Shown here one piece after another: positions 4,819-25,916 of a stretch of 32,000 nt of DNA. The position numbers were made by a program, and so were the translations under genes. Under the pieces are notes generated by a model that did not search any database, was not told the DNA's origin, and was given only the letters and a program-made list of their open reading frames with translations. Positions within the stretch are counted from its first letter, which is position 1, and the number at the start of each line of letters is the position of its first letter. This DNA is from Pseudodesulfovibrio mercurii. Lineage in GTDB: Bacteria > Desulfobacterota > Desulfovibrionia > Desulfovibrionales > Desulfovibrionaceae. The stretch lies in NCBI RefSeq assembly GCF_000189295.2, contig NC_016803.1, positions 3,510,001 to 3,542,000 on the forward strand, written 5' to 3'.

Positions 4819-4830
4819 CTTTATCTTTCC

Positions 4831-4876
4831 TGGAGCCAGGAATCGGAATTGAACCGACGACCTACTGATTACGAAG
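4831..4876 (-). repeat. displaced tRNA-Thr 3' half (pseudo-tRNA, distal att site)
   Basis: TGGAGCCAGGAATCGGAATTGAACCGACGACCTACTGATTACGAAG comprises CCA, the acceptor 3' strand, the T-arm, the variable region and the anticodon stem/loop. Sequence beyond the anticodon loop is unrelated AT-rich DNA, so there is no D-arm or 5' acceptor strand. Confidence 0.9.
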
Positions 4877-5096
4877 AAAATGTCTGGAAAATACGTGTTG
4901 AAATAATTGAACCTATTTCGATAAATTTTGTATAGTGGGGCAAAAGGGGGTATCTTGGTGTACACTAAGTATGCCAGAATAAAATTCATAAATTTTTGGA
5001 GGTTAGTTTTATTTTCTGATTTATTATGCTTAATGGTTTATCCAGAATTTGCGTGCTCCCAAACGGTTAGAGGGACGACTTACTGGCTTTTGAAAA
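4877..5096. repeat. att-arm repeat X (copy 1)
   Basis: About 220 bp that align by eye at roughly 80% with 6651-6873. It contains degenerate GTATACC-type motifs (4930-4975) and ends in ACGACTTACTGG, a decayed copy of the tRNA core. Confidence 0.7.
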
Positions 5097-5332
5097 TGTA
5101 TGGATGATAGGCGCATAATTAATTCAACTTGCTTTGTCTTTAGTTTGTTGGGGAGAAATAGTTTATCCTCGTATCTACAGGATATGAAGAGGAATTATTA
5201 AATGGGCGGGAAAGTTTGTTTGTATTCTTACCCGTGTATAGATTAATTAAAGAGTAGGCCTAGCGCGGTAGCCTCGCCTGCAACGGATAGGTGTGTACAT
5301 CTGGTAAACATGACGAGCAGAACGGGGGTGTT

Positions 5333-6247
5333 ATGTTCAACAAAATAAGAAATACGATCTCTGATAAAATAGATCGGAATAAAGAAATTAAAGAGATCAA
5401 AGATGGATACCAAAAGCAATACGGTGTGTTGGTGGAGGAGTTCCTGGATAAGATCGGAACTGATTCTTTGAAACCATTTGGCCTCAATTACCATCTGGAT
5501 AAAGAGTTGGATGTCGACCTTAATAAATGTGGCTGGATGTTGTTTGCCCGGTCAAAGGTTAGTCGACTGGGTTCGGGCATTGTTGGTGGCGCTGTTGAGT
5601 TGTTTGCCCTAGCTCACGATGTCGCTGGGCCGGTTTGGGACAACAACTTGTCGGAGGATATGAGACCCTTCACTGAAAGGTGCAGAGAAAAAGTAAGTGA
5701 CAGCTTGATATCAATCGTTCCAGCTAATGGATATTGGAGTATAAATGTTGTTGGAGAAGTCTTTAAAACCGATAATCTTGCGGCAGAATCACTCAATAAT
5801 ATGTACGATGTGTTAACAACTTACATCAATAGCGTATGCTTTGATGTGGTTGATTATCAGCTACCAGATTTTAAATCTGCAACACCAAAATGTATTATTG
5901 AATCATTTTTTGAATCAAGACAAGGCATGATGTTCAAATGCCCACGTGAATCATCTTTGTTTTGGGAATCTTCTAAGCAAGAAAAAAAATATTATCAATA
6001 CTGCCATGAGTTGTTTGGTTTGAGAGTCAAGACAAAAAGAAATGTAGAAAAAACTTCATATGATGTGAACGGACTCTCATATAAAGAAAATGTAACTGGG
6101 AAATGGGCATCCGTTGTTGTCTCCGGTGTAATTAGAACGATAGTAAATGGTACTATGATTGATCAGGAATTTCCTGCGACAAAGTATAATTTAAAATTCG
6201 ATGACTGCGGGTGGTGTATTGTCGACTACGATCATGTAGATGCATAG
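5333..6247 (+). CDS. hypothetical protein (304 aa, AT-rich orphan)
   Basis: Long ORF in AT-rich DNA. ATG 5333 is preceded by GGGGGTG, whereas the track start at 5291 is GTG. No motif recognised, and no TM segment or signal peptide is obvious. Confidence 0.6.
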   Translation: MFNKIRNTISDKIDRNKEIKEIKDGYQKQYGVLVEEFLDKIGTDSLKPFGLNYHLDKELDVDLNKCGWMLFARSKVSRLGSGIVGGAVELFALAHDVAGPVWDNNLSEDMRPFTERCREKVSDSLISIVPANGYWSINVVGEVFKTDNLAAESLNNMYDVLTTYINSVCFDVVDYQLPDFKSATPKCIIESFFESRQGMMFKCPRESSLFWESSKQEKKYYQYCHELFGLRVKTKRNVEKTSYDVNGLSYKENVTGKWASVVVSGVIRTIVNGTMIDQEFPATKYNLKFDDCGWCIVDYDHVDA

Positions 6248-6299: not shown

Positions 6300-6555
6300 T
6301 ATTAAGTGCTTGTCAAAAGCCGTTGCAGGACTTCAACCTGGATGCTTGTCTCAACTTCCCCAGCGTAGCGGCTCGCGGCAGGATACGCCACCAGTTCCAA
6401 GCAAAGCCCCTTCCTTGCGTCCAGGGCGATCTCACGTGCGATCTCATCAGCCTTTTTGTTGAGCGGATGGACCTTGTAGAAGTTCCCCTCATGGAGATAG
6501 TGCAGGACCGGGACCTGAAGGACGCGGAGAGCAGGACGCAGTCTTTGGCCTCAGG
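6300..6555 (-). pseudogene. decayed fragment (a) of a homologue of the 401-aa gene at 8632-9837
   Basis: DNA aligns by eye with 8628-8830 (the 3' end of the 401-aa gene). It then jumps to the equivalent of about 9372-9420 (GACGCGGAGAGCAGG.CGCAGTC..TGGCCTC). This indicates an internal deletion plus 5' truncation, and no intact frame remains on the minus strand. Confidence 0.7.
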
Positions 6556-6594: not shown

Positions 6595-6604
6595 TTGATT
6601 TCGC

Positions 6605-6650
6605 TGGAGCCAGGAATCGGAATTGAACCGACGACCTACTGATTACGAAG
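6605..6650 (-). repeat. displaced tRNA-Thr 3' half, copy 2 (junction between the two tandem elements)
   Basis: 46/46 identical to 4831-4876. It is followed by repeat X'. Confidence 0.9.
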
Positions 6651-6873
6651 AAAATGTCTGGAAAATAAGTGCTGAAATAATTGAACTTATTTTGCCAATT
6701 TTTGTATACCGGGACCAAAAGGCGTATCCTGGTATACACTCGGTATACCAAGGAAAAATACATGATTTTAGGGCGTTTACTTTTGATTTTTTGATTTGTT
6801 ATGATTTAAGGTTTTCCCAGAATTTGCGTGATCCCAAGCGGTTAGAGTCACGACTTACTGATTAACGATCAGT
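6651..6873. repeat. att-arm repeat X' (copy 2) with putative arm-type integrase sites
   Basis: GTATACC at 6704-6710 and 6743-6749, with variants at 6724-6730 and 6732-6738. The same TTTGTATACC...GTATACCAAGG arrangement occurs at 25771-25797. The repeat ends in GACTTACTGATTAACGATCAGT (6852-6873), a decayed anticodon-arm copy. Confidence 0.65.
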
Positions 6874-6940: not shown

Positions 6941-7085
6941 CAGACCGTGAAGAAGCTCTTTTCGTGGAGATAGTGCAAGGTGTGCCATATGGCGAAGGTG
7001 TCCTCGTCCTCGAAGTCGTGATGGGTTGCGCAAGATCCGTCTCTGAAAACGCTTTGAGCGGCTTCGTGTGCCAATCTTTTCGTTT
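6941..7085 (-). pseudogene. decayed fragment (b) of a homologue of the 401-aa gene
   Basis: Aligns by eye with about 8793-8985 (GAAGAAGCTC..TTC.TGGA.ATAGTGCA.GG.GTG.CA.AT.GCGAAGGTGTCCTCGTCCT.GAA.TCGTGA) and carries an internal deletion of about 60 bp. No intact frame remains. Confidence 0.65.
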
Positions 7086-7210: not shown

Positions 7211-7900
7211 TTAATATGAAAAGGCTACCCGCTCAATGCGATTTAAGACCCTGTTGCCCATGAAAAAACACAATGCTGCTACTATAGCAGCAGTGTTGGT
7301 GTCTCCAAAGTAAAAAGATATTCCTGCTATAAGTCCAGTAATAATTATGTAAGCTGCCCATAAATTTTTCTTCCGCTGTTTTTGTTTATAGTTTTCTTTG
7401 TCCAAATCTTTGAGATATGATGTTAATAAGTCGCTAGTAATTGGATTTGATATGGTTTGCGCGTGTTTAAAAAAAGCAACTCTACAAAGAGTGTCTCCGT
7501 ATTTCATTTTAATAGGATGTGAGCCATTGTTTGCAATGGTTATCAAAAGTTCTCCACCTTCCCAGTTAGGGTCAACAAATGTTGATATACTGGATACACC
7601 CTTAAGTGAAAGACGTGCTTGAGAAGCAACAAGGCCCGTAATATCTCTTGTAGAGGGCATAAATATTTTTTCTAGAGTGGCAAATGTGCATTTATCTCCT
7701 GGATATATCATGACATGGTCATGGTTTTTTTTCAGTTCAGTGAAGCTGCATTGGTCTCCACAGACGTAGAGCTCACCAACTCGAAAGTCGTAAGTACTCA
7801 TTTTTAGATTGTTATCAAAGTCAGCGTTAATGATACGAACTTTATCAGATCTGCTAGGATCATTCGTCAATAATGATTTAAGGTCGTTATTCGCTATCAT
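7211..7900 (-). CDS. dCTP deaminase/dUTPase-fold protein with C-terminal two-helix membrane anchor
   Basis: Motifs in family order: YDFRVGE, ASQARLSLKGV, FVDPNWEGGELLITIANNG, KYGDTLCRVAFF. These compare with E. coli Dcd VDVRLG, RSSLARLG, IDPGWSG..VLEFYN and G..IG.LSF as I recall them. The C-terminus has the basic stretch KQKQRKKN followed by LWAAYIIITGLIAGISFYF and AAIVAALCFFMG. ATG 7900 is preceded by an AGGAG that overlaps the upstream stop codon. Confidence 0.6.
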   Translation of the reverse strand: MIANNDLKSLLTNDPSRSDKVRIINADFDNNLKMSTYDFRVGELYVCGDQCSFTELKKNHDHVMIYPGDKCTFATLEKIFMPSTRDITGLVASQARLSLKGVSSISTFVDPNWEGGELLITIANNGSHPIKMKYGDTLCRVAFFKHAQTISNPITSDLLTSYLKDLDKENYKQKQRKKNLWAAYIIITGLIAGISFYFGDTNTAAIVAALCFFMGNRVLNRIERVAFSY

Positions 7901-7910
7901 TATTATACTC

Positions 7911-8426
7911 CTAAGACCAATATTTACCAACATCATCACTAATAGAATATTTCTTCCGTTTTAAAAGCTCTTCACTGTCAGCGTCAGAATTGTGAAAAAC
8001 ATCATCGTTGTTGTTAAATCTGTAAAAGTATAGCTTTCCTAAGATGTCACCCTTATTAAGGCTAATTGTATTTTGTGATGTATTTAAGAGTAAAACTTCA
8101 AGTCTACCTTCAAATAACGGATCAATGTATGCTGAAGCGAACATGACAACTTTTTTTAGATTTAAAGTTGATTTTGTAGAGATGGACACAATAATATTAT
8201 CTGGAATATTAAAACGTTCGAAACTTATCACGGCAACACTCTCTTGAGGTTGGAGGGTGATAGATTGCATTTCTCGATTTTTGTCATTAAATATAAAATC
8301 GCCGATGCGAAAATGGTAAAATACGCTGTGAAGATTTGACTCTTCGAAATGGGTTATCATTTCGTAGTCGCGGGTTGCTAGAATTTTGATGTTAGTTTTT
8401 GTCAGTAAATCCATAAAATACTCCAT
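7911..8426 (-). CDS. dCTP deaminase/dUTPase-fold protein (soluble paralogue)
   Basis: YHFRIGD, STKSTLNLKKV, YIDPLFEGRLEVLLLNTS and NKGDILGKLYFY occur in the same order as the Dcd/Dut core motifs. The alternative start ATG 8414 has a GGAG 8 nt upstream and may be the true start. The gene is AT-rich. Confidence 0.6.
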   Translation of the reverse strand: MEYFMDLLTKTNIKILATRDYEMITHFEESNLHSVFYHFRIGDFIFNDKNREMQSITLQPQESVAVISFERFNIPDNIIVSISTKSTLNLKKVVMFASAYIDPLFEGRLEVLLLNTSQNTISLNKGDILGKLYFYRFNNNDDVFHNSDADSEELLKRKKYSISDDVGKYWS

Positions 8427-8537
8427 TTTTTTATTTTTAATTCTATATCAAAAATGAGTTCGTGATTCAAGGCCTTTTGGCGGTGAAAGAACAAGTTTCT
8501 AGGGAGATATTTTTGACCTTCTAACTATCTTTTTATT

Positions 8538-8631: not shown

Positions 8632-9837
8632 TTATGGAGCCAACAGTCGCCCCAGTACTTCAGCCAGGATGCCTGTCTCAGCCTTTCCAGCGTAGCGGCT
8701 TGCCGCAGGATACGCCATTTGCTCCAAGCAAAGCCCATTCCTGGCGTCCAGGGCGATCTTCCGTGTGATCTCATCAGCATTTTGATTGAGCGGATGGACC
8801 TTGTAGAAGCTCCCTTCATGGAAATGGTACAGGGCGTGGCAGATAGCGAAGGTGTCCTCGTCCTGGAAATCGTGACAGGCAGCGGCGATGGCAGTCCTGC
8901 CGATCGCAAGTTCCTCGTACATGTCGGGATCGGAACAGGCGTCCCTAAAAACTCCCTGAGCGGCATCGTGCGCTAAACCCTTTGCCTCCTCGAACGATCC
9001 AGCAACCATAGCCGCGTCGATAACGCGCCGTGCGCCCTTGTGAACGACATTTTCCGCGATGTCCTTCCCTGCTGATGCCAGGGCCTCCAAGAGGAACACT
9101 TTCATCTCCTTTTCGTTGATCTCGACAATCTCGTATCGGATAAGGCCTAAGAGTTCGTCAGCGATGGTGTAGGCCACGTGCCAGATCTCGGCTTCGACGG
9201 CGGCCAGGACGTGCTTGGACGTGACGCCGTATGTTGCGCCAAAGGAGATCGCTCCGCCTTGCTCCCAGGCGTAGCGCAGGGCGTGCCCCTTGTTTCCCTT
9301 GCAGGCGTATGTGCTGACTCGGGCCGTTATGCTGTGGTGTAGCTGCATAGCTTCGACCGCACGGTTCAGGGCCGGGATCAGCTTGAGGGACGCGGAGAGC
9401 AGGGCGCAGTCCCTGGCCTCCTTCGCCACGCTCATTTCCCCGTGTGACAGGCGCTCCCTCATGATGGGCTGAGCCACTTCCCAGAGGCGTCCCTGGAGTT
9501 CCTCGTGGTCCAGTTCCCCGTGCGCGCAGAGATGGGCCATGCGCATGAGGTCTCTGAGGCCATCCTGGCAGACTTCGGCGTTTTCCCATAAGGGCATGAC
9601 GCGGTACGCCGCGTCTAGGACAAGCAACCTGAGCGTCTTGTCGATGAAATTTTCTTGCTTGTAGGATGCGGCATCCATGGCTTCCATGCAGGCGTGGAGT
9701 CCCAGGTTTTCGAGGATGAACGAGAAAGAGGGCTGGCCGTCCTCGGAATCCGTCAGAAGGGCGAGCTTGGCCTTTGCGGTTGGCTGCATCCCGTCGTTGA
9801 CGAGCTTACCATTCGCGATGGAAAGGGGATTTTTCAT
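8632..9837 (-). CDS. hypothetical protein (401 aa, Ala-rich, probably all-helical), conserved integrase neighbour
   Basis: Long ORF with island-typical GC, and two decayed homologous fragments lie nearby. The segment LDAAYRVMPLWENAEVCQDGLRDLMRMAHLCAHGEL faintly recalls Imm5-like 'putative immunity protein' repeats, but this is a weak, from-memory impression. Confidence 0.6.
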   Translation of the reverse strand: MKNPLSIANGKLVNDGMQPTAKAKLALLTDSEDGQPSFSFILENLGLHACMEAMDAASYKQENFIDKTLRLLVLDAAYRVMPLWENAEVCQDGLRDLMRMAHLCAHGELDHEELQGRLWEVAQPIMRERLSHGEMSVAKEARDCALLSASLKLIPALNRAVEAMQLHHSITARVSTYACKGNKGHALRYAWEQGGAISFGATYGVTSKHVLAAVEAEIWHVAYTIADELLGLIRYEIVEINEKEMKVFLLEALASAGKDIAENVVHKGARRVIDAAMVAGSFEEAKGLAHDAAQGVFRDACSDPDMYEELAIGRTAIAAACHDFQDEDTFAICHALYHFHEGSFYKVHPLNQNADEITRKIALDARNGLCLEQMAYPAASRYAGKAETGILAEVLGRLLAP

Positions 9838-9903: not shown

Positions 9904-10926
9904 TTAGTTCTCGGACAGCTTTTCGATAGCTTCTTTTTCGCCGTCGCCGATCAGGTGGTAGTACACATTGAACAGCATCGCCGGGCCGGAGTGGCCCATG
10001 ACGGAGGCCACCGCCTTGATATCGGCCTTTTTGGCTATCAGGCTGGAGGCGAAGTAGTGTCGGAGATGGTAGGGCACCACTTTCTTGTCGATGCCTGAGT
10101 TTTTCACGGCGGTGCGGAATGCCTTAATGTAGCTTTGGACAGGCTCGCCCTTGTACTCGACTATGTATTCGGAAGTCGCCGTCTTCTGCCATTCCCTGAT
10201 TTCCTCAAGGATGTCGTCGAGAAGGTGGACGTACCTGTCGCTCCTGGCCGCCTTGGTTCCGCGAATCCTGACGAGCTTGTTGTGGAAGTCCACGTCGCTG
10301 TACTTGATCTTGAGTAGTTCGCTCTTGCCCGGACGGCAGCCCGTTTTCATGATCAGCCTGATCGCCTTGTAGACGTGCAGCGGCGAGTGGGCGAGGATGG
10401 CATCGATGTCGTCCTTGTCGATGGGCAAGTCGCGGTGCTTCTCGCGTTTCAGCACGCGCTTTCGCCAAGCCGCCATCGGGTTCTTTTCGATGTACTCGAA
10501 CTCAACGCCGAAGTTGAACATGACGTTCAGGTACGTGATGTAGCGGTTGAACGAGCTAGGCGACAGGTCTGCGTATTCAAGGGCCAACACGTTGAAGTCC
10601 TCGGCCTTGAGCTTGTGGATCGGCGCGTGGTTGAGCGCAGGGAGGTACGAGTTGTTCAGCCTGTTCGCCATCTCGGTGAGGAACTTCCGTTCACGGCCAC
10701 GGGCCTTCTCGTGGTTGAGGTAGATCTGTCCGAGCTCGTCCAGGTAGATGTGCCCCGTCCTGATCTCTTCCTTGCGAGCCTTCATCAGGTTGATCTCTGC
10801 GTTGCGCTCGTGGGCTGCCTTCTTGGCCTCGGTCCCTTTCCCGTAATACTCCTTCTTCGGGCTCTTGCTGTGGGCGACGCGGTACTGGACGAACCAGCGC
10901 CCGTCTTTGGTGATTCCTACCGCCAT
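9904..10926 (-). CDS. int: tyrosine-type site-specific integrase
   Basis: Catalytic signature TGCRPGKSE (Arg), HLRHYFAS (H-x-x-R), GHSGPAMLFNVYYH (His, Tyr). I used ATG 10926 (MAVGITKDGRWFVQY...) because the 41-codon upstream extension in the track overlaps the Xis-like gene. Confidence 0.9.
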   Translation of the reverse strand: MAVGITKDGRWFVQYRVAHSKSPKKEYYGKGTEAKKAAHERNAEINLMKARKEEIRTGHIYLDELGQIYLNHEKARGRERKFLTEMANRLNNSYLPALNHAPIHKLKAEDFNVLALEYADLSPSSFNRYITYLNVMFNFGVEFEYIEKNPMAAWRKRVLKREKHRDLPIDKDDIDAILAHSPLHVYKAIRLIMKTGCRPGKSELLKIKYSDVDFHNKLVRIRGTKAARSDRYVHLLDDILEEIREWQKTATSEYIVEYKGEPVQSYIKAFRTAVKNSGIDKKVVPYHLRHYFASSLIAKKADIKAVASVMGHSGPAMLFNVYYHLIGDGEKEAIEKLSEN

Positions 10927-10928
10927 CC

Positions 10929-11165
10929 CTACACCTCCACCGGGACGAACCCGGCCTTGCGCACGCGCAGGGGATTGAAGAAGTCGCCGGGGCAAGCCAT
11001 GAAGCTGTCCAGGTCTACCTTGCGGTACCTGTCCCTGTTCGGGCCGCACTTCGGGATGTCATACTCCTTAGCGAACTGCCTGAATTTCGCGGTGCTGTAT
11101 CCGCAGTATTCAGCTGCCTCGCGCTGGTTGAAGAAGTGTCTTTCGACATGGAGCGGTCTGCTCAT
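10929..11165 (-). CDS. AlpA/Xis-like helix-turn-helix DNA-binding protein (putative excisionase)
   Basis: 78 aa. FFNQREAAEYCGYSTAKFRQFAKEYDIP is HTH-like. The gene ends 2 nt before the integrase start. Confidence 0.6.
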   Translation of the reverse strand: MSRPLHVERHFFNQREAAEYCGYSTAKFRQFAKEYDIPKCGPNRDRYRKVDLDSFMACPGDFFNPLRVRKAGFVPVEV

Positions 11166-11271: not shown

Positions 11272-11871
11272 TTAAATTGAATTCTTTAGGATACTGACCA
11301 CTTCCGTGTCGCTGATGCCAAGGTAGCGCATGGTGACGGCTGGCGAGGCGTGATTGAAACGCTTGCACAGGACCTCGAAGCCGACGCCGAAGTGGACGCG
11401 TTGCACGTAGCCGAAGGTTTTGCGCAGGCTGTGGGCTCCGTAGTTGCCTTTGAGGCCAGCATCGCGGCACCACGATTTGGCCATGCGGTTGACGGACTGG
11501 ATGGTCAGGGGCGTGTTCTCTCCCTTCTGTGAACGGAACAGGTACTCGCCGTCGCTAAGCGAGCCTGACGCGAGGAACCGCGTCAGTGCCGCGTGGACTG
11601 AATCGTTGACGGCAAGGACGTTAATCTTGCCAGTCTTGGACTCCTTGATGGCGATGGTGTCGTCGACGTTCTTGCCGCGAAGGTCTCCGACCTTGAGCCG
11701 CAGGAGGTCTCCGCAACGGATGCCGTTGTTGGTCGCAATGACGAACAACAACAGGTCACGCGGCTTGCCGTGGAGCATCGTTTTGATGGCCGAGATTGCG
11801 TCCAGGGAGCGGATGGGCTCGACGGTGATGGAACTTCCCTTGGGCGGGTGGTTGTCGTTTCTGGGACTCAT
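11272..11871 (-). CDS. small tyrosine recombinase (catalytic domain only, 199 aa)
   Basis: NNGIRCGDLLRL (Arg), HSLRKTFGY (H-x-x-R), HASPAVTMRYLGI (His, Tyr). There is no N-terminal arm- or core-binding extension. Confidence 0.8.
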   Translation of the reverse strand: MSPRNDNHPPKGSSITVEPIRSLDAISAIKTMLHGKPRDLLLFVIATNNGIRCGDLLRLKVGDLRGKNVDDTIAIKESKTGKINVLAVNDSVHAALTRFLASGSLSDGEYLFRSQKGENTPLTIQSVNRMAKSWCRDAGLKGNYGAHSLRKTFGYVQRVHFGVGFEVLCKRFNHASPAVTMRYLGISDTEVVSILKNSI

Positions 11872-17732: not shown

Positions 17733-18587
17733 TTAGCCTTCCATCGTATTCGCAGTCTGAATCGCTTTTAAATTCATCCCGTTAGGACTCTTCCAACAGG
17801 TCCTGCCATTCGAGCTTCTTCCTAGAATAACGCCAGCAGCGGTACTTGGTGATGAGAAAATATAGTCTTCGGTGAACACATAGTGCCCATTCCGACCTTC
17901 AAGTACGCCTTTTTTGACTAGATCAGTCCTTAAATTGGTGAGGTATTGGTGGATGGAGGGGACTTCTTCAGTTACAGCTTCGGAGCCTTTAAGAACAACG
18001 AACCCTCTACTTGTTTCGTAGCCTTTAGCTTTGATGCCTTTGGCTTTGATGTGAAGCAGTTCCCTTGCCCCTCTGGTTTGATCCGGCTTCTCAAAAACGG
18101 ACAGTCCTATCAGCGGGAAAACTTTGAGCATGTCCTGGATGAAGCTTTCCATGTCGGCCACATCTGCCTCAGAGAGAGTCGGCTTACTTGAGTCATTGGA
18201 ATTATCCAGATTGCACTGCTTGGCATCTTTCGCCAACTTGATGAGGCGGCTTTCCAGGTACTTCACATGGGCTTTGTTGAGGCTCTGGTTGCTGGTGACA
18301 AAATGCACACCCCAGGTCCAAAAATCCTTTTTGACATAGTGGCTGTCCAGCCGAGGACGTACTGGATCGCCTTCGCCGATGTAGATCGTCGGCAGACTGC
18401 TTTCTTCTGAAGTCCCGACGAGCACATAGACGCCCGTACGTTGGAACTCTTCCCGCTTGAGGGCATCTTTGTAGCCGGAGCGTGAAAAGACCACTCCCAA
18501 GCCAGTCCAGTTGGACTTTTCAATCAACCGCAGACCGTCAGGGTCACCATCGGGAAGGAACATACGTATGGAATAGGGGATCGACAT
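17733..18587 (-). CDS. GIY-YIG-like nuclease domain protein with DUF4357-type C-terminal domain
   Basis: GVYVLVG....PTIYIGEG is GIY-YIG-like. The C-terminal segment FSSPSTAAGVILGRSSNGRTCWK resembles DUF4357. The gene starts 18 nt after the hsdM stop, on the same strand. Confidence 0.65.
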   Translation of the reverse strand: MSIPYSIRMFLPDGDPDGLRLIEKSNWTGLGVVFSRSGYKDALKREEFQRTGVYVLVGTSEESSLPTIYIGEGDPVRPRLDSHYVKKDFWTWGVHFVTSNQSLNKAHVKYLESRLIKLAKDAKQCNLDNSNDSSKPTLSEADVADMESFIQDMLKVFPLIGLSVFEKPDQTRGARELLHIKAKGIKAKGYETSRGFVVLKGSEAVTEEVPSIHQYLTNLRTDLVKKGVLEGRNGHYVFTEDYIFSSPSTAAGVILGRSSNGRTCWKSPNGMNLKAIQTANTMEG

Positions 18588-18605: not shown

Positions 18606-20228
18606 TTACGGTAAAAGCGGCAGGCCCAGTTCCTTAAGAAACCCGTTGTGTTTTTCCTTGGCCGCCTTGGCCGCCTTCTCCGCCTCGACGAGTTTGTCGT
18701 GGGTCGCCTTCAGGTCGATCTCTGGTTCCTGCTCGGCCGTGCTGACATAGCGCGAGATATTCAGGTTATAGTCGTTGTCTCTGATTTCTTTCAGCCCAAC
18801 GCTCCGGGCGTACCGTTCAATCTTCTCTGGCCGCTGCTGGTAGGTATCGATGATCTTGTCGATGTGCTCGGCGTTCAGATAGTTTTGCCGCTTTCCTTTT
18901 TCGAAATGCTCGGCAGCGTTTATGATCAGGACATCATCGGGTTTCTTGCATTTTTTGAGTACGAGGATACACACGGGAATACCCGTCGAGTAGAACAGGT
19001 TCGCCGGTAGTCCAATAACCGTATCGATGTGTCCGTCTTCGAGCAGTTTCCGACGAATCGCGGCCTCTTTGCCTCCACGAAACAGGACGCCGTGTGGCAG
19101 GATGATCGCCATCACGCCTTCATCCTTGAGGTAGTGAAACCCATGCAGGAGAAAGGCGAAGTCGGCTGCGCTCTTAGGTGCCAGCCCGTAGTTCTTGAAC
19201 CGCATATCTTCACCGAGAGCCTCATTCGGTTCCCAGCGGTAGCTGAATGGGGGATTGGCTACTACCGCATCGAACGTCGGCTTCTTTGCGGGGTTTTGTT
19301 CGCGGAGCTTGTCCCAGTCGTTGGTCAACGTGTCGCCGTGAAAAATCTCGAATTCGGAATCCTTCACCCCGTGCAGCAGCATGTTCATGCGGCAAAGGTT
19401 GTAGGTCGTGATGTTTTTTTCCTGTCCGTAGATCATACCGACGCTGCCACCGGCATTGACCATTTTGTGACGGACGTTCAGCAACAGCGACCCCGACCCG
19501 CAGGCAAAATCCATCACGCTTGCCAGCTTTTTTCGGGGGCCAGTCTTGGGATCTTGGCCGTCGAGAGTGACGATGGCGGACAATATGTCGCTGATACGCT
19601 GGGGCGTATAAAATTCCCCCGCCTTTTTGCCTGACCCTGCGGCGAACTGGCCGATTAAGTACTCGTAGGCATCGCCCAGCGTGTCGGAATCGGTCGTAAA
19701 ATCCGCAAGTCCATCGGCGATTTTGGTGATGATCGTGCAAAGTTTGTCATTGCGGTTCTGATAGGTCTTACCCAGTTTCTCCGAGCCGAGGTTGATTTCG
19801 GAAAACAGCCCGGAGAAGGTGCTTTCGAACGACTCGTTCTCGATGTACTTGAAACCTTCCTGCAATGTGTTCAGCAGTTCATCGTTCTGTGTCTTGGCCA
19901 TGTAGGCGATATTCGTCCACAAGTGGTCCGGCTTGATGACGTAATGGGCCTTGCGGCGCATCTGTTTTTCAAATGCGGCTATATCGCCGGGATTATTGTC
20001 GTACCACACCGACAGGGGGGTGCGGCCTCCGTTATCCACCGCATTCGGGTCGGGATAATCCTTCCCTAACTCCTTCTTTGCCGCTTGCTCGTAATTGTCT
20101 GAGAGATAGCGCAGGAACAGGAATGCGAGCATGTAATCACGGAAATCGTCCGCGTTCATCGCGCCGCGCAGCTGGTCGGCGATGTCCCAGAGTATTTGGC
20201 CGAGTCGTTTCTGGTTGCTTTCAGTCAT
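18606..20228 (-). CDS. hsdM: type I restriction-modification system methyltransferase subunit
   Basis: HsdM N-terminal domain (LWDIADQLRG...FLRYLS), SAM motif I DFACGSGSLLL, catalytic motif IV NPPF (VVANPPFSYRW). The gene shares a 4-nt ATGA overlap with the upstream gene. Confidence 0.95.
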   Translation of the reverse strand: MTESNQKRLGQILWDIADQLRGAMNADDFRDYMLAFLFLRYLSDNYEQAAKKELGKDYPDPNAVDNGGRTPLSVWYDNNPGDIAAFEKQMRRKAHYVIKPDHLWTNIAYMAKTQNDELLNTLQEGFKYIENESFESTFSGLFSEINLGSEKLGKTYQNRNDKLCTIITKIADGLADFTTDSDTLGDAYEYLIGQFAAGSGKKAGEFYTPQRISDILSAIVTLDGQDPKTGPRKKLASVMDFACGSGSLLLNVRHKMVNAGGSVGMIYGQEKNITTYNLCRMNMLLHGVKDSEFEIFHGDTLTNDWDKLREQNPAKKPTFDAVVANPPFSYRWEPNEALGEDMRFKNYGLAPKSAADFAFLLHGFHYLKDEGVMAIILPHGVLFRGGKEAAIRRKLLEDGHIDTVIGLPANLFYSTGIPVCILVLKKCKKPDDVLIINAAEHFEKGKRQNYLNAEHIDKIIDTYQQRPEKIERYARSVGLKEIRDNDYNLNISRYVSTAEQEPEIDLKATHDKLVEAEKAAKAAKEKHNGFLKELGLPLLP

Positions 20229-21364
20229 ATAGTCTCTTCCGTGTCGGTTTCATTGAATAATATCGGATTAAACGGGTAGCGCTCGAGGAACTCGTGCAGG
20301 ATGGTGCGAAAATGCTCCTTATTCTCCTCCATCATCTCGCGCGGCTCATAGAGCGAGTAATTGCCGTGACTCAGCAGGTTGACGATTCGAGTATGCAGAA
20401 CGCCGTCGATATCGTCATCGTGTCGTTTGATGCAGTCGGAGAAATTTGCATAGCCGTGAAAACTGGCCGTTTTCTCCATGATCGCGCGGAGCATGTTGAA
20501 GTGGTGCGTGTAGATGTTCCCGCTGCGCTCCGCCTCGTATAGCTCGGCCAGCGCGGCCACGTGATGGAAGAACGGCGTGTCTCCGGTGTTATGGAGAAGA
20601 TACCCCGGTGCTGATCGATTTTGAGCCAGAAAAAAACGGTTTGGGTTCTTTTTCCTCGGCTTCAATTCATTGCATAGCACGTTGAAAAATAAAGTGTGGT
20701 GAGTTGAAATAACTGTCTTTAACGTACTATCCGCTCTCTTGAGCGTCCTCGCCAGATGGGTCGCCACAGCGATGGCGTTCTGTTCATCCAGTGACGAAAT
20801 CGGGTCATCGATGTAGATGTATTTCACCCAGCTGTAGGCTTCGGCTCCGTCAAGAGCAAGCTGGACAATGGCGAGGAAGAAGCACCAGATGAAGATGTTT
20901 TCTTCGCCGCGCGACACCTTGATATTGTCAACGGTGTCGATTCTGGCGTCTTCGCCTTCGCCGGTCGTGACAGTGCGAGAGAAGCGTATCTTCCATTCAT
21001 CCGTGTCGATTCGAAAATCGAAATCCGCGTAGCGGTCGAGCAATGGGCGGATGCGGTTGTCCATCTCCAGTTCTCCAAGGCCAGCGAAGAACTTGGAATC
21101 GGCGTTGAGCTTCAGTGTGCGCTCACTGTCCCCTTCCAGGTCATTATCCCAGGTGAATAGATCTTCAGTGAAGGCGTTGAAGTAGAGAGTGTCGTGTTTT
21201 CCCTCATTGTTATCGTCCTTGCCGAGGCTCTTGAACTCCGTGGACAGGCGCGTTTTCCCCGTACCGTTGTAGGCGTAGAGCAGGATGAACTTTTTCTTTT
21301 CCAACTCGCCGCGCATGTGTTTGGCCAGATCGGACAGATCGTTGAAGGGGACAGGTTCAGGCAT
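20225..21364 (-). CDS. prrC: PrrC-like protein: AAA_13/ABC-type ATPase N-domain plus C-terminal anticodon-nuclease-like domain
   Basis: Walker A YNGTGKTRLS, YFNAFTEDLF box, ABC-signature-like SRGEEN, Walker B IYIDDPISSLD. The C-terminal region carries R-x3-E (LRAIMEK) and NLLSH 36 residues later, which recalls the Arg-Glu-His triad of E. coli PrrC. It is embedded between hsdS and hsdM, and size (379 aa) and context match PrrC. Confidence 0.6.
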   Translation of the reverse strand: MPEPVPFNDLSDLAKHMRGELEKKKFILLYAYNGTGKTRLSTEFKSLGKDDNNEGKHDTLYFNAFTEDLFTWDNDLEGDSERTLKLNADSKFFAGLGELEMDNRIRPLLDRYADFDFRIDTDEWKIRFSRTVTTGEGEDARIDTVDNIKVSRGEENIFIWCFFLAIVQLALDGAEAYSWVKYIYIDDPISSLDEQNAIAVATHLARTLKRADSTLKTVISTHHTLFFNVLCNELKPRKKNPNRFFLAQNRSAPGYLLHNTGDTPFFHHVAALAELYEAERSGNIYTHHFNMLRAIMEKTASFHGYANFSDCIKRHDDDIDGVLHTRIVNLLSHGNYSLYEPREMMEENKEHFRTILHEFLERYPFNPILFNETDTEETI

Positions 21365-21367
21365 GAC

Positions 21368-22573
21368 CTACTGCTCCTCCGGCGCGGGGAAAAGCTGTTG
21401 CATTAGGCCGCGTTTGTGGGTCTTGAGGGCGTCGATCATTGCCTCCTGTGCGGCGATGCTGTCGTCTGTGGCGGTGAGACAGTCGGCAATCTTTTGTTGT
21501 TCTAAGCGCAGAGGCTTATAAACTATAAATGGTATTATGTGTTTGTTGTTGATTTGCGGGATTGTTGATGTGTCTGCAATCTGAGAAAGCCCAACACAAG
21601 AAAGATAGTAGAAAAGAAATTCCAATTCCGTCGCGTCGTGGGGGATAATCGCCATAAGATTTGTGTCAAACAGAATTCCAACCGATGTTATTCTAATTTT
21701 GTTCAACTCAATCGCTGCACCTCGTTTGGGGAACAAAAGCGCTCCCTCTGAAACAACACCTTTTGCATCATTGCAGTACTCTCTGCTATTGACTTGATAT
21801 TTCGTGCAGTTGTTCAAGTCCTCCACTTTAATAAAGGGGTATCTGCCATCGCTAGAAAGAGCATATTGGGATGGGCTCTTCCCGCTAGAAATGCTTACCA
21901 GATCACCGAGTTTGCATTTGCTCCAACCCGGTTTATTCCGAAATTCCGGGAAGCGAAGTCGGGGTTGAGTTTGGCCCTCTTGGGGGAAGAGTTGCTGCAT
22001 TAGGCCGCACTTGTGGTCACGTAGGACCTCTAACTTACTCACTTCGTTGGCGATGAATTCGTCCAGCGAACTGAGACAGTTGGCGATCTTTTTCTGCTCG
22101 GCTTCAACTTCTGGATAGAAGATTTGGGCACCCTTCAAAATGGAAAAGTGTCTCTTATAACTTTCCATCTCAAGCGGGTGGGCGCAGAGAAAGTGATACA
22201 AGAATTCAGTGCTGGGAGTACGCTTCGGCTTAAAAATCTTTATCCCATCGGCCCCTTGAGCAAACGGCCGATTGATCAATTTTAGTACACAAGTATGGTC
22301 TCCGAAAACAATTAGGGGCAAAGGATTGTCAATTAGTGTGTCAACATCATTCGTCCAACCGCATTGAACGTCAGGCGATTGATCAATGATAGGGAATCGA
22401 CCTTCGCGGAGGTATCGAGAAGTCTTGATTTTTTTGGGAGGCGAAACGATTTCGACTAAATCACCCAAAAAAGCTTCCTCCCAACCTGAATCGTTTCGAA
22501 ACTCCGGAAACCGCAGTTTCGGCATCAATGCGTGTTTGTTTTTTTCTCCCATCGTATCTGCCTTACTGCTCAT
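21368..22573 (-). CDS. hsdS: type I restriction-modification specificity subunit
   Basis: Two target-recognition domains are separated by duplicated conserved regions (LRFPEFRN..GW....LGDLV twice; LMQQLFP twice). The alternative start ATG 22552, preceded by TAAGG, would remove the 11-nt overlap with hsdR. Confidence 0.9.
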   Translation of the reverse strand: MSSKADTMGEKNKHALMPKLRFPEFRNDSGWEEAFLGDLVEIVSPPKKIKTSRYLREGRFPIIDQSPDVQCGWTNDVDTLIDNPLPLIVFGDHTCVLKLINRPFAQGADGIKIFKPKRTPSTEFLYHFLCAHPLEMESYKRHFSILKGAQIFYPEVEAEQKKIANCLSSLDEFIANEVSKLEVLRDHKCGLMQQLFPQEGQTQPRLRFPEFRNKPGWSKCKLGDLVSISSGKSPSQYALSSDGRYPFIKVEDLNNCTKYQVNSREYCNDAKGVVSEGALLFPKRGAAIELNKIRITSVGILFDTNLMAIIPHDATELEFLFYYLSCVGLSQIADTSTIPQINNKHIIPFIVYKPLRLEQQKIADCLTATDDSIAAQEAMIDALKTHKRGLMQQLFPAPEEQ

Positions 22574-25500
22574 ATGCGTTCAATCCGGAGATAGCCCGGC
22601 CGTCTGCGCGTTTTTTCAAAAGCGGTACCAGATCGTCCATCAGCGCCAGTTCTTTCTCGCGCCGTTCGCGCCAGCCCAGGTCGAGAGGTTCCAGGAGATC
22701 AGTGAGCTGTTCGCCGTCAAAAATCATACGGTCGAGGATGGCATCCACAAAGGTTTGCAGCGCTTCGTTCGTCAGCCCGTGCTTGTGGGCTATAGCTGCG
22801 AGTTCAGATGCGTGGCGTTCTCCTTTGAAGATTTGGTAGCCGACACGAACATCTTCTTCGGTAAGGGGTTTGCCGGTTTCGAGCGTCCGTACGTACTCCG
22901 TAATCTCGTCGAGTTCGCCCATGAACTTCGCGTCGGACCGAATGAGGCGAACGAGCTCTTCTCGTTTCATTTCCTGTTGACCCGGCGCCTGTCCGCTGAA
23001 GCGGGAGATAAGGCTCATGATGTAGTCATAATCAATGTCGGCGGAGGCGAAGAGGACGAACTCGAAATCGAGCTGGTCGATTACGTCCTGCGTGGCCCTG
23101 TCGCTGTCTCCGACTGTTGCACTGCCTCCTGCTTTGTCCTGCCTGGCTTTGAGGCGTTTGGCGGTTTCGAGGTAGACGCCACGGAAAGCCCGGGCATCGT
23201 CCTTGGGAAGGGCCTGCTCAATCTCCTTACGTTGCTCTTCAGTGAGGTCGGTGTACTGGTCAAGCTGAGTCGTAAGACGCTGAATCTCTTTAAACTGCTT
23301 GACAAAGGCGGCGCGGGCCTCGTCACCCTTGAGGTTGGGGACGGCTTCGGGACGCGGGTCGAGGCCTTGAGACTGGAGGAAGTCGTCGAGTTCCTGCTTG
23401 GCGGCCTTGAGTTGCTCTATGACCACGGGGGCCTCGTCGACCAGCCAGATTTCCCTCGCCTGTTCGGCCCTTGCGCCGGAGAACAGACGGATAGCTTCAT
23501 CGACCCTGTCCCGCTGCCCACGGAAGTCAAGGATGTGGCCGTAAGGCTTTGCCGAGTTAAGGACGCGGTTAGTGCGGGAAAATGCCTGGATCAGGCCGTG
23601 ATACCTGAGGTTCTTGTCGACGTAGAGGGTGTTCAGGTACTTAGAGTCAAAACCGGTCAGGAGCATGTCGACAACAATAGTGATGTCGATCTTTTCCGCG
23701 CCCTTTTTGGGGAGGTCTCGGTTGGGGAATTTCTGGTCCTTTATGCGCTGCTGGACGTCCTGGTAGTATGCGTCGAACTCGCCAATGGAATGATTCGTGC
23801 CATAGCTGGCGTTGTAGTCGGCGATGATGGCCTTGAGGGCTTCCTTTTTCTTTTCCGGCTCCTGCTGGTTATCTTCAAGCTCCTGGGGCAGGTCTTCCTG
23901 AAGCTGCTTGACGTCGGGATTGCCCTCTGCTGGCGGAGAGAAGACGGCGGCAACTCTGACCGGGACATAGTCTGTATCGGCTGCCTGGTGCTCGGCCTGA
24001 ATCTGCTTGAAAAGCTCGTAGTATTCGATGGCGTCGTTGATCGAGGCGGTGGCGAAGATCGCGTTGAAACGGCGCTCGCCGGTAGCCGCGTCGTGTTTGG
24101 CTAGGATTGCGTCGATAACGGCACGTTTGGCGACGGGGGTGCCGGGCTTGGGCAGGTTCTCTCCGTCAGGTTTGAAGTAGTCGACATGAAAACGAAGGAC
24201 GTTCTTGTCCTCGATGGCGTTGGTGATGGTGTAAGCAGGGAATTCGTTTTGAAAAAGGTCCTTGGTGGTGCGGAGCGTCTGGATATTTCCATCGATCTGC
24301 CGGGTAGTGGCGTTCTCGGGAAAGATCGGCGTGCCGGTGAAGCCGAAGAGCTGTGCCTTGGGGAAGAAATTTTTGATGGTCTGGTGGGTCTGGCCGAACT
24401 GAGAGCGGTGGCACTCATCGAAGATAAAAGCCATACGCTTGTCCCTGAGCGGTTCAAGGCGTTCCTTGAAGGTGGCCTTCCCATTCTTTTTGTCGGACTT
24501 GTTGTATTTGCTGGTTTCGTCGAGGGCGAGGCCAAGCTTCTGAATGGTCGTGACGATGACTTTGTCAGCATAGTCGTCGGAGATAAGGCGGCGTACAAGG
24601 GCGGCGGTGTTGGTGTTTTCCTCGACGCAGCCCTCCTGGAAGCGGTTGAACTCTTCGCGGGTCTGACGGTCGAGGTCTTTGCGGTCGACGACAAAGAGGC
24701 ACTTGTGGATGTCGGGATTGAGTTTGAGGAGCGTGGAGGCCTTGAAGGAGGTGAGGGTCTTGCCCGAGCCTGTGGTATGCCAGACATAGCCGTTCCCCCG
24801 GTTTTCACGGATGCTTTGGTCGATGTTCTTGACGGCGTATATCTGGTAGGGGCGCATCATGAGCATCTTCCGCTCTGATGCGACGAGGACCATGTAGCGG
24901 TTGATCGTCGTGGCAAGGGTGCACTTGGGCAGAAAGGACTCGGCGAAGTCACTCAGGTGTGTGATCTTGTTATTGTCTTCATCCGCGTGTTGGTAGATGG
25001 GCAGAAAACTTTCATCGGCGTCGAAAGCAAAATGGCGGTCGTTGTTGTTGGCGAAATAATAGGTCTCGGTCTGGTTGGAGACGATGAAGAGCTGAACGAA
25101 ACAGAGCAGGGTCTTGGTATAGCCGTTGCCGGGGTCTTTCTTGTAGTCCACTATCTGCTGCATGGCCCGGCGGGGGCTGATGCCGAGGGTCTTGAGTTCG
25201 ATCTGAACAACGGGGATGCCGTTGATCAGCAACATCACGTCGTAGCGTTGGAAGCTGTTGTCAGTGTTGATGCGGAGCTGGTTAACGACTTCGAAAGTGT
25301 TTTTGCACCAGTCCTTGATGTTCACGAGGGTGTAGTTGAGCGGGGTTCCGTCATCACGGGTAAAATCATTGATCTCGCGGAGCATGGTAGCGGCGGTGAA
25401 GACGTCGGGAGAGATAATTTCATCGAGGAGACGTTTGAATTCGCCGTCGGTGAGCTGGACGCGGTTGAGGGCCTGAAAATGCTCGCGAAAGTTGCTTTCA

Positions 25501-25592
25501 AGGGTAGCGCGGTCGCGGATGTCGTCGCGATATGTGTATTTAAGATCAGTCAGTTCGCCGATCAAGCCTTGCTCTATTTGTTGTTCTGTCAT
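22563..25592 (-). CDS. hsdR: type I restriction endonuclease subunit R
   Basis: 1009 aa. SF2 motif I HTTGSGKTLTS, motif II FIFDECHRSQ, motif III-like TGTPIF. The N-terminal nuclease region and long C-terminal helical domain are typical of HsdR. Confidence 0.95.
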   Translation of the reverse strand: MTEQQIEQGLIGELTDLKYTYRDDIRDRATLESNFREHFQALNRVQLTDGEFKRLLDEIISPDVFTAATMLREINDFTRDDGTPLNYTLVNIKDWCKNTFEVVNQLRINTDNSFQRYDVMLLINGIPVVQIELKTLGISPRRAMQQIVDYKKDPGNGYTKTLLCFVQLFIVSNQTETYYFANNNDRHFAFDADESFLPIYQHADEDNNKITHLSDFAESFLPKCTLATTINRYMVLVASERKMLMMRPYQIYAVKNIDQSIRENRGNGYVWHTTGSGKTLTSFKASTLLKLNPDIHKCLFVVDRKDLDRQTREEFNRFQEGCVEENTNTAALVRRLISDDYADKVIVTTIQKLGLALDETSKYNKSDKKNGKATFKERLEPLRDKRMAFIFDECHRSQFGQTHQTIKNFFPKAQLFGFTGTPIFPENATTRQIDGNIQTLRTTKDLFQNEFPAYTITNAIEDKNVLRFHVDYFKPDGENLPKPGTPVAKRAVIDAILAKHDAATGERRFNAIFATASINDAIEYYELFKQIQAEHQAADTDYVPVRVAAVFSPPAEGNPDVKQLQEDLPQELEDNQQEPEKKKEALKAIIADYNASYGTNHSIGEFDAYYQDVQQRIKDQKFPNRDLPKKGAEKIDITIVVDMLLTGFDSKYLNTLYVDKNLRYHGLIQAFSRTNRVLNSAKPYGHILDFRGQRDRVDEAIRLFSGARAEQAREIWLVDEAPVVIEQLKAAKQELDDFLQSQGLDPRPEAVPNLKGDEARAAFVKQFKEIQRLTTQLDQYTDLTEEQRKEIEQALPKDDARAFRGVYLETAKRLKARQDKAGGSATVGDSDRATQDVIDQLDFEFVLFASADIDYDYIMSLISRFSGQAPGQQEMKREELVRLIRSDAKFMGELDEITEYVRTLETGKPLTEEDVRVGYQIFKGERHASELAAIAHKHGLTNEALQTFVDAILDRMIFDGEQLTDLLEPLDLGWRERREKELALMDDLVPLLKKRADGRAISGLNAYEQ

Positions 25593-25840: not shown

Positions 25841-25916
<76 letters not shown>

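Follow-up and report, generated by a model that had tools for sequence, protein, structure and literature searches.

The window analysed here is the whole of a stretch of 32,000 nucleotides from Pseudodesulfovibrio mercurii (contig NC_016803.1, positions 3,510,001 to 3,542,000). It carries two adjacent genes on the minus strand, here called A and B, whose products are related to dCTP deaminase (Dcd) and dUTPase (Dut). Judged by sequence comparison, B was assigned to a widespread, undescribed membrane-anchored family, which was named DCD-2TM in this work. The family was defined by a DCD barrel, a linker, a basic patch and a C-terminal hydrophobic hairpin, with a total length of 217-256 amino acids (aa). 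B has this architecture, and A, a soluble protein of 167 aa, does not. The two genes and the parts of B are as follows.

Gene A, 7911..8414, minus strand: soluble 167-aa protein with predicted Dcd/Dut fold; alternative upstream ATG at 8426
Gene B, 7211..7900, minus strand: 229-aa DCD-2TM member, identical to DND132_3141 of P. mercurii ND132
A/B junction, 7901..7913, minus strand: TAG stop codon of A (7913-7911) within AGGAG (7912-7908)
B residues 1-145, 7466..7900, minus strand: predicted Dcd/Dut beta-barrel domain, no Glu at the position of Dcd Glu138
B residues 172-178, 7367..7387, minus strand: basic patch KQKQRKK, just ahead of the first hydrophobic helix
B residues 180-198, 7307..7363, minus strand: first predicted transmembrane helix, LWAAYIIITGLIAGISFYF, Kyte-Doolittle hydropathy 1.86 over 19 residues
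B residues 204-215, 7256..7291, minus strand: second, short hydrophobic helix, AAIVAALCFFMG, found with a relaxed hydropathy threshold only

An initial annotation had placed these co-oriented genes where the window is richest in AT, and the base composition agreed with this. The GC content was 36.6% for 7501-8000 and 32.6% for 8001-8500, the minima of the window, while the surroundings had 52-73%. The coupling that was proposed at the same time, by a stop codon forming part of the ribosome-binding sequence of the next gene with a gap of 10 nt, was likewise confirmed by the coordinates (7913-7908 and 7900). The Shine-Dalgarno sequence AGGAG ends 7 nt before the ATG of B (7900), and the stop codon of A lies 10 nt before it. 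The TAG-within-AGGAG junction indicates that A and B are translationally coupled. The start codon of A is most likely the ATG at 8414, because a GGAG occurs 6 nt upstream, the resulting 167 aa correspond to NCBI protein P0002, and the N-terminus aligns with that of the P. indicus orthologue. No promoter-like or terminator-like site near the pair clearly exceeded chance.

Both proteins matched the Pfam family DCD (PF22769), A with 41 bits and B with 34.5 bits, above the gathering threshold of 27. The matches to the more specific models stayed below their cut-offs: 49.4 (A) and 43.3 bits (B) to the dCTP deaminase equivalog TIGR02274 (cut-off 92.8), 21.4 and 21.9 bits to the trimeric dUTPase family PF00692 (cut-off 22), and 30.8 and 14.2 bits to the dUTPase model TIGR00576 (cut-off 102.55). 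AlphaFold2 models made from family alignments reached a predicted local distance difference test score of 86.8 for B and 84.3 for A. Foldseek comparison of these models with the PDB, a check that the initial annotation had suggested, found Dcd/Dut structures at E values of about 1e-9 to 1e-10 (best ~4e-10 for B and ~7e-10 for A), with target-normalised template modelling scores of up to 0.85 for B and 0.77 for A. The top structural matches of B were the Thermococcales dUTPases 9ln3 and 8y1w (scores 0.83-0.85); Dcd and bifunctional Dcd-Dut enzymes came next. A matched Dcd-Dut and Dcd structures as well as the Thermococcales dUTPases found with B. The best PDB matches by sequence were 9ln0 and 8y1w for both proteins (E 1e-9 to 1e-11). 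Pfam scores, models and structural matches thus agree with the Dcd/Dut fold originally suggested from ordered core motifs, every one of which was present in A and B, and both proteins are predicted to form the jelly-roll Dcd/Dut beta-barrel.

The residues needed by deaminases were compared against the actual dcd gene of E. coli, with the numbering of E. coli Dcd. The numbers Ser111, Arg115 and Glu138 given in the initial annotation were correct.

Ser111 position: Ser in A; Ala in B; Ala or Val in the DCD-2TM family
Arg115 position: Leu in A; Leu in B; Leu, Ala or Ser in the DCD-2TM family
Glu138 position: Leu in A; Thr in B; Thr, Ser or Ala in the DCD-2TM family
Asp128 position (motif III): Asp in A (IDP); Asp in B (VDP); invariant Asp in the DCD-2TM family

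The loss of deaminase residues that had been suspected is therefore real, with Glu138 replaced by Leu in A and by Thr in B and Arg115 by Leu in both. The C-terminal lid (Y171/R174/K178/Q182) is absent in A, where the last ~25 residues were disordered in the AlphaFold2 model, and in B a linker and the hairpin stand in its place. The lack of Glu138, Arg115 and the lid argues, from the alignments, that neither A nor B can be a dCTP deaminase. A canonical housekeeping dcd-dut pair was considered and rejected on the same residues and on the curated cut-offs that both proteins missed. The Asp of the YD(L/F)RVG motif, which we take to be the equivalent of dUTPase motif I, is invariant in the family and kept in B as D38; in A it is His and in the A protein of P. 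indicus Leu. A also lacks Arg115, Glu138 and the lid, and it is on these grounds that A appears to be catalytically compromised and probably a non-catalytic partner.

The basic patch and two hydrophobic helices at the end of B had been noticed earlier. In the hydropathy analysis the segment 180-198 was robust; the second segment was shorter and weaker. In the AlphaFold2 model, a long helix (157-197) follows the barrel, and a second helix (201-228) folds back on it as a hairpin. By the positive-inside rule, the side of the membrane with the basic patch would be cytoplasmic. The statement that housekeeping genes of the dcd/dut type never have such a tail was wrong, as the DCD-2TM relatives of B carry it.

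An exhaustive HMMER search with B yielded 435 cluster representatives (50% identity) at E<1e-3 and 49 at E<1e-10. The top matches were 217-256 aa long and consisted of barrel, linker, basic patch and hydrophobic hairpin. A hydrophobic window of transmembrane grade was present in 31 of the 32 aligned members. Seven residues of the barrel were invariant, and B keeps the family-invariant D38, G42, E77, S93, T107, D110 and N124; it departs from the family at the near-invariant positions G36, V95 and T140. Conservation extended into the tail (G193 72%, F197 74%, A205 68%, G215 81%). A genome scan found 37 DCD-2TM loci, distributed over Cyanobacteria, Bacteroidota, Nitrospirota, Gammaproteobacteria, Patescibacteria, Bacillota, Chloroflexota, Desulfobacterota and Bathyarchaeota. 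No model in Pfam, NCBIfam, PHROG or PADLOC spans the full-length protein, and literature searches for PF22769, DUF4346, dCTP-deaminase-like or dUTPase-like defence and membrane-anchored dUTPase returned no description of the family. Viral contigs contained no DCD-2TM protein, phage genomes gave barrel-only matches to Dcd/Dut proteins of phages and archaeal viruses, and plasmids gave no match. The initial annotation had called the architecture one that could not be named; the family is indeed without a name, but it is widespread and mostly metabolic.

Several relatives had additional domains. P0058 is a fusion of an NDT-like protein with DCD-2TM, and P0093 one of a NUDIX-like protein with DCD-2TM. 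In P0022 and P0130, an internal duplication gave two non-deaminase DCD barrels and one transmembrane hairpin per chain; the design of two barrels per anchor therefore arose more than once. P0059 has a DCD barrel fused to an AAA+ ATPase and no transmembrane segment.

The genes surrounding DCD-2TM were surveyed by pooling all 139 neighbours at up to two positions on either side in 37 genomes and assigning them to Pfam families.

Families with ten or more neighbours: dCMP_cyt_deam_1 22; Thymidylat_synt 22; PterinBD 22; CobO 13; Nuc_deoxyrib_tr at least 10
Families with fewer than ten neighbours: DCD 7; dUTPase 2; HD 2; Thy1 (ThyX) 1; IMPDH 1; GMP synthase 1

Clustering of the neighbours of the 37 loci gave ThyA-like/PterinBD proteins in 24, dCMP deaminases in 22 and NDT-like proteins in 20. 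Most cyanobacteria had a conserved operon of a ThyA-like gene (~499 aa), a dCMP deaminase gene (~183 aa), DCD-2TM and an NDT-like gene (~155 aa). This four-gene operon occurs at L022 5939-9333 (Rivularia) and at ~20 other cyanobacterial loci, and cobO usually adjoins it. The protein of ~499 aa is a fusion of a methanogen-type thymidylate synthase core with a pterin-binding domain: an MtrA-like N-terminus is followed by the thymidylate synthase core (TIGR03283, 129 bits, below the cut-off) and a PterinBD-DUF4346 domain. The literature search turned up no mention of DUF4346. A cyanobacterial metagenome contig (L044 4868-6871) has three DCD-fold genes together, for a canonical Dcd (194 aa), a divergently transcribed Dut-like protein of 177 aa and DCD-2TM (249 aa), adjoined by a ThyA-like/PterinBD gene.

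A canonical Dcd gene was located directly upstream of DCD-2TM in loci L010, L011, L012, L015 and L027. Outside the cyanobacteria the upstream gene could also encode Dut (L005), ThyX (L013) or a long-form Dcd (L017), and a HAD hydrolase was another neighbour. For P0004 (41% identity), P0013 and P0010, the relatives closest to B, the gene comes immediately after one for a soluble DCD protein and has ThyA-like genes beside it; the arrangement of a soluble DCD followed by DCD-2TM is therefore recurrent. The soluble partners at loci of this type have S111, R115, E138 and the lid and scored 92.8-117.6 bits with TIGR02274, by which they are classed as genuine Dcd. The pathway would thus lead from dCTP to dUTP by Dcd, from dUTP to dUMP, and from dUMP to dTMP, with DCD-2TM as the putative enzyme of the dUTPase step. 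In several non-cyanobacterial lineages a protein of ~204 aa is encoded directly beside DCD-2TM (L007 8176-8820, L009 722-1345, L017 8731-9339, L019 7180-7869 and L053 785-1399); in several loci it is coupled downstream. It had no Pfam or NCBIfam match apart from a weak NUDIX similarity in L017 (21.8 bits), and in L053 its gene overlaps the stop codon of DCD-2TM.

A scored 40-46 bits with the DCD-2TM clade and at most 28 bits with canonical Dcd; by these scores it appears to be a paralogue of the B clade rather than a form of Dcd. Besides P. mercurii, only P. indicus yielded a protein of the A type, although 5.8 billion proteins were searched with a profile and a single-sequence search and two metagenome scans were also run. 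In P. indicus, A is 63% and B 48% identical to the proteins of the window, the genes overlap by 1 nt, and the tail of B is retained. That the pair is intact and coupled at this distance suggests that it is under selection. The P. indicus pair is a lower-GC insert of two genes between serC/serA and an FAD/FeS oxidase gene, with no integrase or defence gene nearby, and the upstream regions of the two species showed no convincing conservation. Conservation of the pair, which the initial annotation had proposed to check, holds for P. indicus alone, where the neighbours are housekeeping genes. The only pyrimidine deoxynucleotide genes to which A and B are linked in the window and in P. indicus are each other.

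In P. mercurii the pair is located on a mobile island with the following features.

6604..6649, minus strand: att-like partial copy of the 3' end of tRNA-Thr, identical to 4830-4875; distal end of the island
6943..7030: fragment of the 3' part of the 401-aa gene, 78% identical (compare 8797-8884)
8632..9837, minus strand: 401-aa island backbone gene between the pair and the integrase, GC ~57-60%
9904..11049, minus strand: tyrosine integrase of the island
10929-11165: HTH_17 excisionase-like gene
11272-11871: truncated tyrosine-recombinase open reading frame of 199 aa beyond the HTH_17 gene (Phage_integrase, 66.5 bits)
17733-18587: DUF4357 protein
18606-20228, 21368-22573 and 22563-25592: hsdM, hsdS and hsdR of a type I restriction-modification system
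20225-21364: AAA_13 protein of 379 aa, between hsdS and hsdM
25841-25916: intact tRNA-Thr(CGT), related to the partial copies

A VapE/DUF5906 primase-helicase-like gene and a CHC2 zinc-finger protein gene are also present on the island. The partial tRNA-Thr copies with common flanks at 6604-6649 and 4830-4875 point to a P4-like island of ~19 kb in tandem with the remnant of a sister island. The repeats at the island ends (4830-5085 and 6604-6860) are 83-85% identical, and fragments of the 401-aa gene are found at 6314-6552 and 6943-7030. The AT-rich pair is flanked by a fragment and by the full copy of the 3' end of the 401-aa gene, which marks its site as a cargo slot. In the equivalent slot, the remnant island has a different AT-rich orphan open reading frame (5291-6247, 318 aa, no family match). 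The pair therefore seems to occupy a variable cargo slot of a mobile element that also bears defence genes, and the cassette is of foreign, horizontally acquired origin. The position between an att site and the integrase given in the initial annotation was right with respect to the att-like sequence (6604-6649) and the integrase (9904-11049), but the 401-aa gene (8632-9837) lies between the pair and the latter.

In the reading preferred here, to which we give about an even chance, the island carries the pair as cargo; B would be a trimer that is tethered to the membrane and resembles a dUTP/dCTP pyrophosphatase, and A its soluble partner, probably non-catalytic or weakly catalytic. The pair would be a horizontally acquired and divergent form of the soluble DCD and DCD-2TM arrangement of pyrimidine deoxynucleotide metabolism. 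B would form a trimer of the Dcd/Dut type at the cytoplasmic face of the membrane, held there by its C-terminal helical hairpin, and would bind and hydrolyse dUTP, perhaps also dCTP, to the monophosphate and pyrophosphate in the manner of the Dcd-like dUTPases of Thermococcales. The motif-III Asp and the linkage or fusion of DCD-2TM to enzymes of the same pathway fit such a catalytic step. A would take the place of the true dCTP deaminase of related operons and would act as a regulatory or nucleotide-binding subunit, or as a member of a mixed trimer in contact with B, made in a fixed ratio with B through translational coupling.

Several observations weigh against this assignment. No ThyA, dCMP deaminase or true Dcd gene adjoins the pair in the window, and the AT-rich cargo position in a mobile island with a type I restriction-modification system would suit a defence function equally well. 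The canonical Dut gene immediately upstream in L005 runs counter to a simple replacement of dUTPase at that locus. The phosphate-binding motif (R110-S111-S112 in Dcd) is altered throughout the family (SKVS) and further in B (SQAR); together with the membrane linker that stands where a lid motif would close the active site, this makes catalysis by B putative.

The initial annotation had proposed a defence or abortive-infection module. In this form, the pair would be an anti-phage system co-opted from metabolic DCD-2TM, which during infection depletes dUTP and dCTP or senses an abnormal pyrimidine deoxynucleoside triphosphate (dNTP) pool through A, with B acting at the membrane. The strongest point in favour of this idea is the location of the pair as AT-rich cargo between the att-like site and the integrase, on the same island as the type I restriction-modification system (~10 kb from the pair), the AAA_13 gene and the primase/VapE-like gene; the corresponding slot of the sister island is occupied by another AT-rich orphan gene. 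A looks like a pseudo-enzyme, and there are precedents for the recruitment of metabolic families to defence, dCMP deaminase and dGTPase among them. Two isolated loci of relatives also point in this direction. In L006 5366-8564 (a Bacteroidales chromosome), DCD-2TM adjoins a phage terminase large subunit with 51% identity to an uncultured phage and 33% to Microcystis phages, seemingly in a prophage. In L008 7220-9623 (a Bacteroidota metagenome-assembled genome), the next gene starts 11 nt after DCD-2TM. Its 570-aa product contains the P-loop-like motif GLTGYTGSGNST (residues 23-34) and, further along the chain, a CDA deaminase domain (365-522). This architecture matches the 576-aa defensive kinase-deaminase of Tal et al., and the protein is by elimination the probable source of the PADLOC dCTPase match (E=2.5e-97). 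L008 may encode a dCTP deaminase of the defence type together with a dUTPase-like partner of its own, but the locus is explained equally well if DCD-2TM removes the dUTP that the deaminase produces. At the level of the family the idea was not supported. The 139 pooled neighbours were overwhelmingly thymidylate-pathway or other pyrimidine deoxynucleotide genes, with SIR2 and PDC-M11B as single matches only, and PDB sequence searches gave no identification of the neighbours behind these two. In the neighbourhood survey called for in the initial annotation, the nearest two genes on either side of the 37 relatives gave only isolated defence-type matches and no apparent enrichment next to defence genes; the closest relatives of B follow canonical Dcd. 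A, B and their window neighbours had no PADLOC match (E<=1 for A and B), the only other A and B locus lies amid housekeeping genes, and the viral contigs, phage genomes (for the full-length protein) and plasmids searched held no relatives. We regard the defence function as unlikely, and a metabolic role is the more likely of the two. A bolder form of the same idea is more doubtful still. It would make the pair a defence module newly derived from the metabolic family, in which the pseudo-enzyme A reads the pyrimidine dNTP pool or a phage product and controls the anchored B trimer, whose six-helix bundle would perturb the membrane or locally destroy dUTP and dCTP, so that the DCD-2TM hairpin would be more than an anchor.

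Two further explanations do without catalysis. Both proteins might bind pyrimidine dNTPs without turnover and act through the hairpin as a membrane-associated sensor or regulator. The altered phosphate-binding and lid motifs of the family, which deviate more strongly in A and B, are consistent with this, as is the conservation of the tail positions G193, F197, A205 and G215 beyond mere hydrophobicity, a pattern that points to specific packing of the helices and not to a plain anchor. The invariance of the motif-III Asp and six other barrel residues, including those of B, is typical of active enzymes, however, and the regular occurrence of DCD-2TM beside other enzymes of the pathway, or fused to them, also speaks against a sensor, which we consider rather improbable. 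The pair could also be functionless hitch-hiking cargo, the decaying remnant of a thymidylate operon carried by the island. In favour of this, the pair lacks its metabolic partner genes, several near-invariant family positions are changed in A and B, and island fragments form a patchwork around it. Both reading frames are nevertheless intact and coupled, the core motifs are retained, the pair is kept in P. indicus at 63% and 48% identity, and the AlphaFold2 barrels are confident for both proteins, so that decay is very improbable.

Among known systems, E. coli Dcd and the bifunctional Dcd-Dut enzymes of M. tuberculosis and M. jannaschii share the fold and the Pfam family of A and B. The true Dcd of related operons occupies the position of A, whereas A and B lack Glu138, Arg115 and Y171/R174/K178/Q182. 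Closer still are the Dcd-like archaeal dUTPases (T. pacificus 8y1w and the thermostable P45, 9ln0/9ln3), which have the beta-barrel and the (V/I)DPxW motif with the catalytic-type Asp in common with the pair. In the alignments the replacement of the deaminase Glu, in these enzymes by a hydrophobic residue, is a further common feature. The archaeal dUTPases are, however, soluble proteins of ~155 aa which keep R-S-S..A-R and the C-terminal lid, while B has SQAR..SL and A lacks Arg115 and the lid; in B the lid is replaced by the linker, the basic patch and the hydrophobic hairpin. The phage T4 protein gp56, which is soluble and phage-encoded, is the dCTPase-dUTPase of the T4 genes for dNTP synthesis. 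The monophosphates that it forms from dCTP and dUTP are passed on to a dCMP deaminase and to an enzyme of the ThyA type, and this same set of partners is found in the cyanobacterial DCD-2TM operons. The defensive dCTP deaminase described by Tal et al. is a 576-aa protein with a zinc-dependent CDA domain and a kinase domain, so the earlier remark that known anti-phage dCTP deaminases have another fold was accurate. Like this enzyme, AvcD and the defensive dGTPases act on deoxynucleotide pools and are often found on mobile islands; A and B differ from such nucleotide-depleting enzymes in having the Dcd/Dut fold instead of CDA and kinase domains, and in the metabolic neighbourhoods of their family.

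If the preferred reading of B as a membrane-tethered pyrophosphatase-like enzyme is true, the thymidylate operons of many bacteria, including nearly all filamentous cyanobacteria sampled, encode a dUTPase-like enzyme that is tethered to the membrane. DCD-2TM would then bear on the supply of dUMP, on the exclusion of uracil from DNA and on the reason for a membrane location. The P. mercurii pair would be a variant with a probable pseudo-enzyme for the deaminase partner, a module on mobile DNA, and could serve as a starting point for asking how Dcd/Dut-fold enzymes may be recruited to conflict, as CDA-fold deaminases and dGTPases were. What makes the pair interesting is less a new defence system than the DCD-2TM family, so far undescribed, and the question of why its members are attached to the membrane.

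Some features of the island stand apart from the pair. An integron cassette was rejected, as the integrase scored 66.8 bits, against 265 for the model of integron integrases, and the flanks contain no inverted or direct repeats that would delimit a cassette. The 401-aa backbone gene had no relative in viral contigs. The truncated recombinase at 11272-11871 may be a relic of another integration event. The AAA_13 gene within the type I restriction-modification genes gives a layout that is reminiscent of PrrC/RloC-type anticodon nucleases, which are embedded in type I restriction-modification loci.

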